Positions 6,247-43,155 of a DNA stretch of 64,000 nucleotides are shown in pieces. The notes beneath the pieces are model-generated. The model was given only the letters and a program-made list of their open reading frames with translations. It ran no database searches and was not told where the DNA came from. The first letter of the stretch is position 1, and every line of letters begins with the position of its first letter. The stretch is from a plasmid. The translations under genes were made by a program, and so were the position numbers. The stretch lies in the NCBI RefSeq assembly GCF_056712565.1, contig NZ_JBWXXM010000004.1, one strand, 5' to 3'.

Positions 6247-6699
6247 ATGTTACTTAACTGGCAGGGACGCCACTTCATGGAAATAAATCACTCACGAATA
6301 ACATCGTACGAGATTGCGGATTACATGATCCGCACTAAATCTCTTCTATCAGCGAAAGAACTCGCAGCAATTCTTGAAAAGGAATACCCGCATCTGGATG
6401 TCGATAAGCGCGATGTTTATCTGCGCTTAAAGGCTATCGCTGTGTCTAAGTATTCGTCTGTTTTGATTGATGACAGTACACGCCCACGTAGATTTCAGAT
6501 CCACTCTCTGAATCCTGAATTCTTTCGCCGCAGCCGCGCTCCGCGCCGGTTTGATGAAAAACTCCAGAACGAACTCTATATGACGCAGGACGAAAAGGAA
6601 CGCCGGGAGCACCAGCCTTGGGTGATGGCGCGTCAACTTTTCAATAAGGTGGTCCGTCAGCACCGTCATTACGGTAATGCCACATCCGCACGTATCTGA
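6247..6699 (+). CDS. late promoter activator (Lpa)-position protein, 150 aa
   Basis: Immediately upstream of pacA with a C1-operator-like site in front, as for P1 lpa; identity by synteny only. Confidence 0.45.
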   Translation: MLLNWQGRHFMEINHSRITSYEIADYMIRTKSLLSAKELAAILEKEYPHLDVDKRDVYLRLKAIAVSKYSSVLIDDSTRPRRFQIHSLNPEFFRRSRAPRRFDEKLQNELYMTQDEKERREHQPWVMARQLFNKVVRQHRHYGNATSARI

Positions 6700-6785
6700 T
6701 TGATTGCTTGCCCGTTCCGGGCCTTTTGACATGTGACTTTCGTTACCCTCGCGTCAAAAAGAGTTTTATACGAAAGGAAGCATAA

Positions 6786-7978
6786 GTGACCTGGGACGAT
6801 CACAAGAAGAATTTTGCTCGCCTGGCGCGAGATGGTGGTTACACCATCGCACAATATGCCGCCGAGTTTAATCTCAACCCAAACACCGCACGTCGTTATC
6901 TCCGTGCATTCAAAGAAGACACCGGAACAGCGGACAGCCGTAAGCCAAATAAGCCTGTCAGAAAACCACTAAAAAGCATGATCATTGATCACGCTAATGA
7001 TCAACGTGCAGGTGATCACATTGTGGCTGAAATGGCTGAAAAACAAAGAGTTAATGCTGTTGTCAGTGCCGCAGTCGAGAACGCGAAGCGCCAGAATAAG
7101 CGCATAAATGATCGTTCTGATGATCATGACGTGATCACCCGCGCCCACCGGACCTTACGTGATCGCCTGGAACGCGACACCCTGGATGATGATGGTGAAC
7201 GCTTTGAATTCGAAGCTGGCGATTACCTGATAGATAACGTTGAAGCGCGGAAGGCCGCGCGCGCTATGTTGCGTCGGTCCGGGGCTGATGTTCTGGAAAC
7301 CACTCTTCTGGAAAAGTCTCTCTCTCATCTCCTTATGCTGGAGAACGCCAGGGATACGTGTATTCGCTTGGTTCAGGAAATGCGCGATCAGCAAAAAGAC
7401 GATGATGAAGGAACTCCGCCTGAATACCGTATCGCGAGCATGCTAAACAGCTGTTCCGCGCAGATAAGCAGCCTGATCAACACCATTTACAGCATCCGGA
7501 ATAACTATCGAAAAGAAAGCCGGGAGGCGGAAAAGCACGCTTTGTCTATGGGGCAAGCTGGCATTGTAAGCTGGCATACGAACGAAAGCGTGAAAACAAC
7601 TGGTCAGTGCTGGAGGCAGCTGAATTCATCGAGGCGCATGGAGGGAAAGTACCGCCCCTGATGCTGGAGCAAATCAAAGCCGATCTGCGTGCTCCTAAGA
7701 CCAATACCGATGATGAGGAAAGGCAAACAGCCGTCGGTGGCCCTTCTCTTGAAGATCTGGACAAAGTTGCGCGAGAACGGGCCGCCAACCGCCGCGCCGA
7801 TGCCGCATTGTGGATTGAGCAGCGTAGGGAAGAAATCGCCGATATCGTTGATACAGGCGGTTATGGAGATGTTGATACTGAAGGTGTATCAAACGACCCA
7901 TGGCTGGAACAAGACCTGGACGAAGACGAGGAGGAAGACGAAGAAGTTACCCGCAAGCTATACGGGGATGATGATTAA
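6786..7978 (+). CDS. pacA: terminase small subunit PacA, reading frame broken in this sequence (ORFs 6786-7661 and 7607-7978)
   Basis: Contains the pac hexamer cluster; directly precedes pacB; total span 1193 nt (one short of a multiple of 3); the second frame reads continuously upstream to about 7580. Confidence 0.65.
6979..7137. other. pac packaging site: 4 + 3 TGATCA/G hexamers flanking the cleavage region
   Basis: TGATCA at 6979, 6986, 6998, 7013 and TGATCG/TGATCA at 7109, 7121, 7132; each contains a Dam GATC; the 4+3 layout is that of P1 pac. Confidence 0.75.
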
Positions 7979-9462
7979 TGGCCAGAAGTTGCGTAACGGA
8001 TCCACGTTGGCGCGAGCTGGTGGCGCTATATCGTTATGACTGGATTGCTGCCGCTGATGTTTTGTTCGGCAAAACACCTACCTGGCAGCAGGATCTGATT
8101 ATTGAGTCTGTGCAGGAACAGGGTAGCAAGACATCTGTTTCGTCTGGTCACGGTACCGGGAAATCAGACATGACTTCTATCATGATCATGTTGTTCATAA
8201 TCATGTATCCAGGTGCCCGTGCCATTATCGTTGCGAACAAAATTCAGCAGGTAATGACCGGTATATTCAAGTACATCAAGATAAACTGGGCTACTGCCAC
8301 CAGCCGTTTCCCATGGCTTGCTGATTATTTTGTTCTGACAGAAACCGCTTTCTATGAGATTACTGGTAAAGGTGTATGGACTGTAGTACCGAAGGGCTTT
8401 CGTCTGGGAAGTGAAGAAGCTCTCGCCGGTGAACACGCAGATCATCTTCTGTATATTATCGATGAAGCCTCCGGTGTCAGTGATAGAGCTTTCGGTATCA
8501 TCACCGGTGCTCTTACCGGACAGGATAACCGCATCTTATTGCTGTCACAGCCTACACGCCCAAGCGGCTATTTCTACGATACACACCATAAACTGGCCAA
8601 GCGTCCTGGTAACCCTGATGGCGTTTATACGGCGATCACGCTTAACAGTGAGGAATCACCGTTGGTAACGCCAGCATTTATCAAAATGAAGCTGGCGGAG
8701 TACGGCGGGCGTGATAACCCTATGTACATGATTAAGGTACGCGGCCTATTCCCTAAATCACAGGATGGCTTCCTTCTTGGACGTGATGAGGTTGAACGTG
8801 CGACGCGGCGGAAAGTCAAGATTGCCAAAGGATGGGGCTGGCTTGCATGTGTGGACGTTGCTGGTGGTACGGGACGGGATAAGTCCGTTATCAATATCAT
8901 GATGGTGTCCGGCCAGAGAAATAAACGCCGTGTAATCAACTATCGAATGCTGGAATACACAGACGTTACAGAAACGCAGCTTGCCGCCAAAATTTTCGCA
9001 GAATGTAATCCTGAGCGATTCCCAAATATCACCATAGCGATAGACGGCGATGGGCTGGGTAAAGCAACGGCGGATCTGATGTACGAGTATTATGGTATTA
9101 CCGTACAGCGTATACGCTGGGGTAAAAAGATGCATAGCCGTGAAGATAAGAGCCTGTACTTTGATAAACGTGCTTATGCCAACGTTCAAGCCGCAGAGGC
9201 CGTAAAATCTGGTCGTATGAGACTGGATAAGGGTAATGAAACTATTGAGGAAGCGTCGAAAATCCCTGTAGGGATTAACTCCGCAGGTCAATGGAAGGTG
9301 ATGAGTAAGGAGGATATGAAGAAAAAACTCAACCTGCACTCACCAGACCATTGGGATACATATTGTTTCGCTATGCTGGCGGATTATGTTCCCCAGGATG
9401 AAGTGCTTAGCGTCGAAGACGAAGCGCAGGTTGATGAAGCTCTGGCATGGCTTAATGAATAA
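7978..9462 (+). CDS. pacB: terminase large subunit PacB
   Basis: 494-aa product; follows pacA; terminase-like ATPase region. Confidence 0.85.
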
Positions 9463-9486: not shown

Positions 9487-10338
9487 CTATTGCGCGCTTT
9501 CGGGGTTGTCGTTTACTGGCTGCCCTTTCTTAGTTTTACGGCTGCGCGTAACTGATGCGGCTGATTTGACCTTTTTCTCTTCGCGAGTGATGGCAATTTG
9601 TTTTTTTACATTTTCAATATCTGCCAGGCGATATATTTTTGCCTGCGGCCAGCGGTCGCAGATGATCGGTTCTATAGAGTCATAAAGGCTAAATTTTGCT
9701 TTCTCGAATTCACCGTTGATGATAATTCCATCACGGAGAGTTTCATCGCAGATAAACACACCACATAGCGGCACATGGTAACTAACTGATTTACCATCAT
9801 TGTAGTTAGGGCTACTAGAAATGTAATGGACGCGCAGCATTGTTTCGCTAAAGCCGTGTACGCGCATACGGAATTTTTCATCCTCCGGGTACTGCTTCAT
9901 TAGCTCTTTTGTTGCTTCCAGGTTCTCTATGTATTTCGCACTGTGCTCATTGATCCCTGCGCTTTTCTGGATGCGAATGTCCTTATCAATCAGATGAATA
10001 ATGCGGCCAGCGGTCATGTTGACGCTGTTCACAGCTTCTGTCTGATAAGTCGTAACCTTACGCACACCGCGAAGGATGTTAGGTACTGGATATAAAATAG
10101 TCTTTGGGATATTGAGGTCTGGGTACTGTTCCAGTTCCCGCGCCATTAAAGTCCATTTATCAATTTCAGCCTGAATGCTGTCAGTTTCTTTGAACGGCAG
10201 AACGACAACCGGGCGTACAGGACGACCGTCGCTGGCGGCATCAACGTGTTGGGCGCGTGCAACAGCTTTTTTTAGAAAGAGATCCCTGAAGCTGACGAAC
10301 TCCTGGTACAGTTGTTCGCCGTAGACATAATTTATCAT
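9487..10338 (-). CDS. c1: C1 repressor of lysogeny
   Basis: 283-aa product (length of P1 C1); convergent with pacB, downstream of coi, operators nearby. Confidence 0.85.
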   Translation of the reverse strand: MINYVYGEQLYQEFVSFRDLFLKKAVARAQHVDAASDGRPVRPVVVLPFKETDSIQAEIDKWTLMARELEQYPDLNIPKTILYPVPNILRGVRKVTTYQTEAVNSVNMTAGRIIHLIDKDIRIQKSAGINEHSAKYIENLEATKELMKQYPEDEKFRMRVHGFSETMLRVHYISSSPNYNDGKSVSYHVPLCGVFICDETLRDGIIINGEFEKAKFSLYDSIEPIICDRWPQAKIYRLADIENVKKQIAITREEKKVKSAASVTRSRKTKKGQPVNDNPESAQ

Positions 10339-26923: not shown

Positions 26924-27055
26924 AAAGACCTCATAAGCGAATTTTTTACGCTCCAGGACAACACCCATTCACAGCCAATACCGACTGACTCGATCCCTTT
27001 AGAAGGCACAGGATAATGCAAATCACTTGTTAGCTACGTTTCAAAGATATACATT

Positions 27056-28597: not shown

Positions 28598-28904
28598 AAT
28601 ATACGATCTGGTCTACATGATCACCAAAATCATCGTCGTCGTCCTCATCGCCACCATCTACTGCTGGCCAATCAACAAACCAGCCAGCGTAAAGATGCAG
28701 CGTTCGGAGAACATCACTTGCGGGAGCATCAAGGGTGTTAACGAATCCCATATAGCTATTGGGATTTGCTCCAGCTATGGCTTCAGCGATCATGTCCTCG
28801 GTAATGTCACCGGAGATAATGCTTAAACGCCCGGAAACTTCTTCATTATCATCAAATTCGATAATGGCATCTCCGCCTAATGGCGCTGCGATTTTAATCT
28901 GCAT
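28596..28904 (-). CDS. hypothetical acidic protein (102 aa), last gene of the dar operon
   Basis: ORF track; C-terminal DGGDEDDDDDFGD. Confidence 0.35.
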   Translation of the reverse strand: MQIKIAAPLGGDAIIEFDDNEEVSGRLSIISGDITEDMIAEAIAGANPNSYMGFVNTLDAPASDVLRTLHLYAGWFVDWPAVDGGDEDDDDDFGDHVDQIVY

Positions 28905-36212: not shown

Positions 36213-36641
36213 TTAGCGGTCAGCAGGCGCTAGATACATCGAATTGATGTGCCGCGCGATAAATGTACCTATTCTATCAAGATAAATTACACCGACGCGG
36301 CAAGCACCCATGACATGAAAAAAGAAACGCCCCATGGGTGTTGATGTGTCAATACTGTCTGTCAGACTACGGAAATTAACACCTTTTTCCCGCAACTCCT
36401 CTATAAGCGTGATAAGGTGTTTCATACTTCTGCCAAGCCTATCCAGCTTCCAGACAACCAGCGTATCTCCTTCTGATAACGTTCTGAGCAGCTTTTTCAA
36501 GCCTGGTCTGGCTGACTTTGTTCCGCTTATTTTATCTTCAAAAATCAGTTCACATCCTGCGCAGTTCAGTGCATTTCTTTGTAAATCTGTGTTTTGGTCA
36601 TTTGTTGACACACGAATGTAGCCAATTTGCATGAAAAACAA
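36213..36641 (-). CDS. cin: Cin/Min-family serine DNA invertase, C-terminally truncated (homology ends after about residue 113 at about nt 36301)
   Basis: MQIGYIRVSTNDQNTDLQRNALNCAGCELIFEDKISGTKSARPGLKKLLRTLSEGDTLVVWKLDRLGRSMKHLITLIEELREKGVNFRSLTDSIDTSTPMGRFFFHVMGA matches the Gin/Hin/Cin catalytic domain; the next 29 residues are unrelated and the HTH domain is absent. Confidence 0.75.
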   Translation of the reverse strand: MFFMQIGYIRVSTNDQNTDLQRNALNCAGCELIFEDKISGTKSARPGLKKLLRTLSEGDTLVVWKLDRLGRSMKHLITLIEELREKGVNFRSLTDSIDTSTPMGRFFFHVMGACRVGVIYLDRIGTFIARHINSMYLAPADR

Positions 36642-41505: not shown

Positions 41506-43155
41506 TTACGTGGGGTAAACCTTTGCCAGATTTGGGTACTTTTCAGAAGAAAATGCTGCTCCGTTACATTTCAGCCACCCCGTTGGTGGTGTGGCGGAGG
41601 GCCATGGAACAGGTACACCAACGGGCAGCGCCGAGCCTTCCCCTAAACCAAGGTAATCAAGAACGCTATGAATACTGGTCTTACCAAGAATGGCGCGTCC
41701 AACACTTGTCAATGCAGTTAACGCGGCACGATCAACACCTGTGAAATAAGGGAGTTTATCTGCTGCTGTAGCTAGTGCCGCTAGAGCAGTGAGCGTAGCG
41801 TCTGCCGCTTGCTTTCCATTAGCCAAATCATATGCAGCCTTGACAGCTTTCGGTGTGGCGGCCAGCACTTCAGACGTGCTGTTAGTGGCACTACTGAGCT
41901 GAGTGATGCCTTTCGCTGTCAATGAAGCTGTTGGCACACCAGTGATCTGATTCCAGGGATGTGTATGACTGGATGGTGCCTTTCCGGCTGCTAGATCGTA
42001 TGCAGCTTTAACCGCTTTTGGAGTTGCAGCTAATGTTTCAGAAGTGCTGTTGGTGTCGCTACTGAGCTGAACTATCCCTTTTTGTGTCGTGGTTGCATCC
42101 TGGGCTGTATACTTCCCGTTAGCCAAATCATATGCAGCCTTGACAGCTTTCGGTGTGGCGGCCAGCACTTCGGACGTACTGTTAGTGGCACTACTGAGCT
42201 GAGTGATGCCTTTCGCTGTCAATGAAGCTGTTGGCACACCAGTGATCTGATTCCAGGGATGTGTATGACTGGATGGTGCCTTTCCGGCTGCTAGATCGTA
42301 TGCAGCTTTAACCGCTTTTGGAGTTGCAGCTAATCTGTTGGTGTCGCTACTGAGCTGAACTATCCCTTTTTGTGTCGTGGTTGCATCCTGGGCTGTATAC
42401 TTCCCGTTAGCCAAATCATATGCAGCCTTGACAGCTTTCGGTGTGGCGGCCAGCACTTCGGACGTACTGTTAGTGGCACTACTGAGCTGAACTAATCCCT
42501 TTTGCGTTGTGCTTGCATCCTGCGCCGTATACTTGCTTTTCGCCAGATCGTAGGCTTTTTTAACTGCCAGCGAACTCGCAGCAACATCACTTCTGGTACT
42601 GGTTACAGAGTCTGAAATATCAATGCCGATCGTGCGGTTGATACGCTCGGATGTATCAATCATCTCTTGAGTAATGGTAGATACGCCAGCAGGGATATTC
42701 ACCGTACAAACCAGCAGTTCCCCATCACCTAACTGATATGAATCGGTATAGGTTCTGGCAACAAATTCAGCTGCATGAATATGTGACGCGGTATTAACCT
42801 GATAGGTATCTTCTCCAAGAAGGTATCTTCCCTTCAGCACAATTGCATATTTCTTGCCTGCGTTAAGTGCAAGAGAGATATCCTTACGATGCTGAATAGT
42901 TACCTGGTAGAATTCACCAATATCCACTGACGCCGCGCCAGCGGTTTTATCTCCATCCACTGAGGTGATTAACAGGTTCATCCCACCGCCAGGCTTAGGC
43001 AAGAAACCAGCATAAAATCCCGGGTCAACAATTCCCCTGAATTTTCGGTTTAGAGCGGCTGACAGATATGGTTCGTGGTATTGCACATCAGCCACCAGAG
43101 CCAACGACTCGGGTGATGGGTAAGTAACCGATGTAACAACTGTAACGTCATTCAT
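41506..43155 (-). CDS. tail fibre protein S (constant N-terminal part plus start of the expressed cassette), ends at an in-frame ochre codon inside the conserved cassette head
   Basis: Start MNDVTVV behind AAGGA; internal repeats of the phage tail-fibre repeat motif (SSATNSTSEVLAATPKAVKAAYDLA); ends ...LGEGSALPVGVPVPWPSATPPTGWLKCNGAAFSSEKYPNLAKVYPT*. Confidence 0.7.
   Translation of the reverse strand: MNDVTVVTSVTYPSPESLALVADVQYHEPYLSAALNRKFRGIVDPGFYAGFLPKPGGGMNLLITSVDGDKTAGAASVDIGEFYQVTIQHRKDISLALNAGKKYAIVLKGRYLLGEDTYQVNTASHIHAAEFVARTYTDSYQLGDGELLVCTVNIPAGVSTITQEMIDTSERINRTIGIDISDSVTSTRSDVAASSLAVKKAYDLAKSKYTAQDASTTQKGLVQLSSATNSTSEVLAATPKAVKAAYDLANGKYTAQDATTTQKGIVQLSSDTNRLAATPKAVKAAYDLAAGKAPSSHTHPWNQITGVPTASLTAKGITQLSSATNSTSEVLAATPKAVKAAYDLANGKYTAQDATTTQKGIVQLSSDTNSTSETLAATPKAVKAAYDLAAGKAPSSHTHPWNQITGVPTASLTAKGITQLSSATNSTSEVLAATPKAVKAAYDLANGKQAADATLTALAALATAADKLPYFTGVDRAALTALTSVGRAILGKTSIHSVLDYLGLGEGSALPVGVPVPWPSATPPTGWLKCNGAAFSSEKYPNLAKVYPT
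41633..41658 (-). other. crossover site xs-9 inside S (constant/variable junction)
   Basis: Plus strand gagccttcccctaaaccaaggtaatc; core ACCTTGGTTTAGG, reverse-complement-symmetric around TT like Hin/Gin/Cin-family sites. Confidence 0.55.
41815..42530. repeat. about 300-bp tandem direct repeats (2.4 copies) inside S
   Basis: 41821-42120 and 42121-42405 nearly identical (second copy lacks 15 bp near 42336), third partial copy to about 42530. Confidence 0.7.

Follow-up and report, generated by a model that had tools for sequence, protein, structure and literature searches.

The packaging site (pac) of bacteriophage P1 consists of four plus three hexamers arranged around an IHF site, and it lies within the pacA gene (PMC10028697). 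PacA carries out pac cleavage and packaging jointly with PacB, IHF, and HU. Its gene is essential in P1. Its repression by CRISPRi gives an efficiency of plating below 1.2e-7 (PMC10695390), and a pacA knockout makes proheads and tails only, with no complete virions (PMC9024508). PacA resembles the TerS-type small terminases of pac-type tailed phages in a presumed N-terminal HTH recognition region followed by long helices. It also shares with them a large terminase encoded directly downstream and a packaging site within its own gene (PMC10028697). It differs in being much longer (397 aa) and in having no Pfam terminase domain above threshold, and it matches phrog_370 ('terminase small subunit') only weakly (E 5e-4). 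Loss of phage functions is known to turn P1-like phage-plasmids into plasmids (Pfeifer and Rocha 2024, PMC10879196), and pJIE250-3 is a defective or plasmid-only P1-like derivative (Venturini et al. 2019, PMC6906374).

The stretch of plasmid DNA analysed here (the window, 64,000 nt in all) contains a region that matches P1-type pacA and pacB in 20 phage records, 612 PLSDB plasmid records, and 604 complete E. coli genome records. Judged by its sequence, the element is a P1-like plasmid prophage, and its pacA gene encodes the pac-recognising subunit of the pacase (terminase). This is the same gene at the same locus as P1 PacA (YP_006575.1) and the phiW39 allele (AY751748, AAV84925.1; WP_000219604.1 in plasmids). 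The features that surround or lie within it are as follows.

6247-6699: lpa, upstream of LPpac
6731-6749, plus strand: late promoter LPpac, intact and identical to the annotated P1 LPpac (NC_005856 90475-90493)
6979-7137, plus strand: pac packaging site inside pacA, intact, with seven hexamers TGATCA/G
7978-9462, plus strand: pacB, encoding the large subunit of the pacase in an unbroken ORF of 494 aa that a census of the ORFs did not flag
9487-10338, minus strand: c1, downstream of pacB

The order lpa, LPpac, pacA, overlapping pacB, and c1 is the P1 arrangement, and the pacA stop codon and the pacB ATG have one A in common (TAATG). The likeness to P1 and phiW39 includes the late promoter and all seven pac hexamers, which are conserved in the window. 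The hexamers start at 6979, 6986, 6998, and 7013 and again at 7109, 7121, and 7132 (P1 equivalents 90722-90880). Projection from P1 places the IHF site at approximately 7041-7053 and the pac cleavage positions at approximately 7061-7070.

The window differs from both phages in its pacA reading frame, which lacks one T at nucleotide 782. Intact pacA is 1194 nt long and encodes 397 aa in P1 (NC_005856 90529-91722), in phiW39, and in the plasmids compared. Here, this single frame is replaced by two overlapping ORFs in different frames, 6786-7661 (291 aa) and 7607-7978 (123 aa), both of which open with GTG. Their joint span is 1193 nt, one short of the 1194 nt that pacA occupies in P1, in phiW39, and in every intact relative. 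The initial annotation had proposed that these two ORFs are the pacA gene of a P1-like element that is one base short and would encode about 397 aa if repaired. Comparison with P1 and phiW39 agrees on both counts, since P1 PacA has 397 aa and the repaired protein matches phrog_1711 (PacA) with an E value of 1.4e-204. The first ORF corresponds to PacA residues 1-261 at 100% identity and the second to residues 275-397. The broken gene can be divided into the following parts.

6786-7661, plus strand: 5' ORF of pacA, with 261 native and 30 out-of-frame residues and a TGA stop at 7659-7661
7566-7568, plus strand: lesion codon GTA (Val261), with one T of TT lost between 7567 and 7568
7568-7978, plus strand: native-frame 3' part of pacA (PacA 262-397), containing the 262-293 block and the acidic tail, with its ORF listed from GTG 7607
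7555-7564 and 7568-7577, plus strand: direct repeats, two 10-bp copies of AAGCTGGCAT, with the spacer TGT here and TGTT in every relative

The lost base is one T of the TT in GCATTGTTAAGC (GCATTG[T]TAAGC), at window position 7567/7568 and codon 261/262. Codon 261 still specifies valine (GTT becomes GTA, as AAG came next), and the frame is shifted from residue 262 on. In a global alignment, this T is the sole difference from phiW39 pacA over 1194 nt. The pacA gene of pE2-2 likewise differs from that of the window by the lost T only, and identity to P1 pacA is 94.5% at the DNA level. The phiW39 allele is the commonest pacA allele, and at least 1000 contigs carry its 397-aa product. Chance plays no part in this comparison because the window equals phiW39 (immC record) across 2.25 kb (6529-8780) save for this one gap, with normal divergence beyond. 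Aligning the gene to pacA, a check that the initial annotation had suggested, does recover a one-base loss, but it places the loss at TT 7567/7568 and not in the A-rich run at 7581-7600 where it was thought to lie. That run is identical to all references, and the true site is 14-33 nt upstream of it. The end of the first frame had also been described as low-complexity sequence, but the 30-residue out-of-frame tail is instead non-homologous to PacA. Lesions of this kind are better located by alignment than by eye.

The part of PacA that follows the break is well conserved in its homologues. Full-length proteins with 73% to 28% identity to PacA, which come from Salmonella, Enterobacter, Klebsiella, Xenorhabdus, and others, each consist of one polypeptide of approximately 350-410 aa. 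In the homologue alignment, no other part of the C-terminal half is as conserved as residues 262-293, directly past the lesion, with A264, Y265, A279, I282, E283, G286, and P290 invariant and W273, T278, G287, K288, V289, and L293 nearly so. The N-terminus has a weak Pfam match to HTH_23 (residues 10-48, 23.6 bits versus a cut-off of 24.6). An AlphaFold model of PacA made from the homologue alignment predicts three short helices at residues 3-45 (pLDDT 81-88), which could form an HTH-like unit. The model is poor overall (pLDDT 64.5, pTM 0.22), with its best C-terminal confidence (85-88) at residues 261-300, and it puts the break within a long helix (212-271). A PDB sequence search with PacA returned no relatives. 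PacA residues 293-397 (window 7661-7975) coincide exactly with the 105 positions of a further protein family, phrog_23417 ('unknown function'), which appears to have been built from fragments of broken pacA genes.

The product of the first ORF keeps the presumed N-terminal HTH region and 261 native residues, and it loses the 262-293 block together with the acidic C-terminal third. In total, the C-terminal 136 residues of PacA are out of frame in the window allele. Members of the PacA family are encoded by a single uninterrupted ORF of approximately 390-400 aa, and the window gene is split at codon 261/262. As written, it is a pseudogene or null allele of this family rather than a functional member. 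In P1, both the cleavage of pac and the filling of heads depend on PacA, and from this, the conservation pattern, and the P1 knockouts we infer that such an allele would be packaging-null.

A different possibility is that the split gene still works, either by a -1 slip at the heptamer G GGA AAG or as two pieces that function jointly. In the latter case, the C-terminal piece could be re-initiated at a TGATG overlap or at GTG 7607. Two sites near the end of the first ORF are relevant to these proposals.

7643-7649, plus strand: heptamer G GGA AAG, read in phase by the mutant first ORF; after a -1 slip at this point, translation would return to the native frame
7659-7663, plus strand: TGATG overlap, in which the stop of the first ORF (7659-7661) overlaps the native-frame ATG of Met293 (7661-7663)

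In phage lambda, G/GT frameshifting takes place at a heptamer of the same sequence. In pacA, it conforms to the canonical X XXY YYZ pattern 12 nt before the stop of the first ORF, and a slip there would give a 397-aa product. However, the heptamer is out of phase in intact pacA, so it cannot be a selected signal, and we regard it as coincidental. The TGATG sequence joins the first stop to a native-frame ATG and is a possible re-initiation point by inspection, and the C-terminal part of PacA has been predicted as a gene of its own so frequently that it makes up a family, phrog_23417. Against this, there is no good Shine-Dalgarno sequence ahead of either GTG 7607 or ATG 7661. The 397-aa slip hybrid or a re-initiated product would also garble or lack residues 262-288/292, with the loss of the invariant positions A264, Y265, A279, I282, E283, and G286, and the break falls inside a predicted helix and not in a linker.

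The two-frame arrangement is also unconserved. The pacA gene is one intact ORF in hundreds of plasmids, in at least 120 viral contigs, and in 63 of the 66 IMG/VR loci, the other three of which have undergone larger rearrangements, and every homologue down to 28% identity is a single protein. Functional relatives that share the two ORFs would have spoken against a lesion according to the initial annotation, and these IMG/VR loci and plasmids are undivided. Two phages that were considered as sharing the split, vB_EcoM-813R1 and vB_EcoM-673R5 (ON470617.2 and ON470615.2), have pacA broken elsewhere, at nucleotides 395, 566, and 1133. All three positions are CCWGG sites, and we treat these breaks as artefacts. 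Other split pacA alleles are annotated pseudogenes in visibly decayed plasmids. We therefore consider it highly improbable that the split gene retains its function.

The deleted allele is confined to the window in every collection searched. With 80 nt around the lesion as the query, a 100% match is found in none of 568 plasmid records and none of 555 E. coli records, and the T deletion was not found in 20 phage records. PLSDB, the complete E. coli genomes of RefSeq, and the INPHARED phages contain no sequence identical to the window allele. A search for the 30-nt junction created by the deletion finds no copy in IMG/VR, the JGI metagenome contigs, or the GTDB genomes, and at least 120 viral contigs have the intact version of this junction. 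A collection of approximately 15 billion proteins lacks the exact 291-aa product, and no recorded contig encodes it. By these comparisons, the one-T deletion is private to the window. The plasmids pE2-2 and pMTY1887 were considered as carriers of the lesion (1401-nt matches), but pacA is intact in both and their differences lie upstream.

A private lesion of this type could be a sequencing or assembly error, in which case the real element has the TGTT spacer and an unbroken pacA of 397 aa, and only the record is frameshifted. The lone single-base deletion, which is found in no other assembly searched and has zero accompanying substitutions in an otherwise very common allele, is what an error would look like. 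A pacA pseudogene without further change also fits an error, although it is equally expected of a very recent mutation. In addition, other public records have lone 1-nt deletions in pacA. Several of them lie at CCWGG or within a run of five A residues (A5), as is typical of long-read artefacts, and some clearly are artefacts. Apart from the two phages with breaks at CCWGG, pM71903 (NZ_AP023436.1) has 1-nt deletions in an A5 run (nucleotide 254) and at CCTGG (nucleotide 383), and p853EC1 (NZ_CP040920.1) lacks a G at nucleotide 1118. The 'Pac1/Pac2'-type annotations in public records with split pacA are probably artefacts.

The sequence around the lesion and the rest of the window are less compatible with an error. 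The initial annotation had left the choice between a homopolymer error and a genuine packaging-defective allele. Both options stand, but the homopolymer basis does not, and that form of error is weakened because the lost base is a T from a TT dinucleotide rather than from a homopolymer run. The run is only 2 nt long, and no Dam or Dcm motif (GATC or CCWGG) occurs in 7520-7615 (within approximately 40 nt of the lesion). Indels are also not scattered over the 64 kb. Comparison with P1 and with pS159-2, the closest relative (98.8% identity), reveals no other private 1-nt indel in the window, no other frameshift among its ORFs of at least 100 aa, and no other uncompensated coding indel. This suggests that the assembly is accurate, so a single chance error that happens to hit an essential gene is unlikely.

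One other 1-nt deletion does separate the window from both pS159-2 and P1. It changes AAA to AA at 26961 in the lyz-ssb intergenic region and is matched exactly in the plasmids NZ_CP012491.1 and NZ_CP122941.1, which indicates a rare natural polymorphism and not an error. Two in-frame length polymorphisms relative to pS159-2 are also present. One is the loss of a single GTC unit from a (GTC)n run at 28643, and the other is a 12-nt deletion at 42334 in the repeat-rich constant part of S.

The frameshift in pacA had originally been listed beside a truncated invertase and an ochre codon in S, and both of these companion lesions prove to be real. The cin gene (a cin/min-type invertase at 36213-36641 on the minus strand) retains nucleotides 1-331 of 573. 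The 3' 40% of the gene and 6 nt beyond it are lost in a deletion of 249 bp whose junction lies at 36302, and cin is full-length in all top-listed E. coli relatives. Because cin is truncated, the multi-cassette invertible tail-fibre region is probably locked; cassette shuffling makes long-query comparison of this region uninformative. The second lesion is an in-frame TAA at 41506-41508, codon 550 of the expressed tail-fibre gene S (minus strand, start 43155), where relatives have TTA. Relatives read CCA ACG TTA at this site and the window reads CCC ACG TAA, which amounts to two private substitutions. A query for the ochre site reaches a best identity of 97.5% in 309 E. coli records.

Base-calling cannot produce these two further private inactivating lesions, and their presence in cin and S makes relaxed selection on the lytic genes plausible. 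A recent, genuine, and private pacA mutation in a P1-like phage-plasmid that is losing its lytic functions is therefore the explanation that we consider probable. An error in the record is a serious but less likely alternative. The derivatives described previously (PMC10879196, PMC6906374) are like the window in that a P1 backbone without lytic functions is maintained. They differ in that most of these cases involve gene loss or insertions, whereas the backbone in the window is nearly complete and has three small lesions.

Broken pacA genes in other elements show where such a change can occur. The exact 123-aa product of the second ORF is recorded on 80 contigs, ten of which were compared (L010-L019). 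Seven of the ten (L010, L011, L012, L014, L015, L017, and L018) have lost one copy of the repeat in AAGCTGGCAT-TGTT-AAGCTGGCAT through a 14-nt deletion at pacA nucleotides 770-783 (window-equivalent 7555-7577). Another (L019) has an 8-nt deletion at nucleotides 799-806 (CGAAAGCG). The last two (L013 and L016) have a large deletion that extends from inside lpa into pacA, with its junction near pacA nucleotide 795. This deletion takes out LPpac and the pac site, and transposase genes are nearby. The clustering of these lesions near nucleotides 770-800 is in part due to ascertainment, since only lesions between Met254 and GTG 7607 yield the 123-aa call, and any claim of recurrence is limited to the identical 14-nt deletion.

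Six pacA haplotypes carry the 14-nt deletion. Leaving aside L010 and L018, which are identical, each deleted allele is more similar to an intact allele than to any of the remaining deleted alleles, so the deletion events appear to be recurrent and independent. A 39-nt query across the deletion junction, for which intact alleles offer no seed match, detects this allele in five complete RefSeq E. coli plasmids, all of 126-231 kb. PGAP labels the gene in these plasmids 'terminase, frameshifted', and it occurs alongside an IS1 in pdcB. The frameshifted pacA genes of p1-H9 (NZ_CP029181.1) and pLR-46_1 (NZ_AP027538.1) are inactivated within the same 30-nt stretch as that of the window, and they lie in otherwise decayed elements; pLR-46_1 also has a truncated pacB. 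They differ from the window in the type of lesion, which in them is the recurrent 14-nt deletion between AAGCTGGCAT repeats and in the window is a unique 1-nt deletion in the repeat spacer.

The AAGCTGGCAT-TGTT-AAGCTGGCAT stretch (approximately 30 nt; pacA nucleotides 770-797) may be a natural hot spot at which P1-like phage-plasmids switch off packaging time and again. In that case, conversion of such a phage to a plain plasmid would commonly begin, or pass at an early stage, through the repeated loss of pacA, and this loss would not be a product of random decay. The 14-nt deletion on at least five pacA backgrounds, the adjacent 8-nt deletion, and the 1-nt deletion in the spacer of the window all point in this direction. 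We regard this proposal, in both its parts, as speculative and rather unlikely. If it is true, the converted plasmids would include ones that are too large for packaging.

The reading that we prefer, a recent genuine mutation of the window pacA, has consequences for the element. Translation from the normal GTG gives 261 native residues followed by 30 unrelated ones, with termination at 7661. The cis elements LPpac and the seven pac hexamers are intact, as is pacB. After induction, proheads and tails would form, and there would be no filled, infectious, or transducing particles, so the element would persist only vertically, as a plasmid. Taken together with the private lesions of cin (deletion) and S (ochre), the loss of pacA would mark a phage-plasmid that is shedding its lytic functions. 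The gene, the consequence of its loss, and the general process of decay are all already known, and in this respect the case is nothing new in kind. Because several public records have artefact-type deletions in pacA, a lone pacA frameshift in a database record needs read-level confirmation before the element is called defective. If the deletion in the window is real, then this element is unable to package DNA and could neither transduce nor lysogenise, and its spread would be vertical only. This would bear on how one judges whether such elements mobilise accessory genes.
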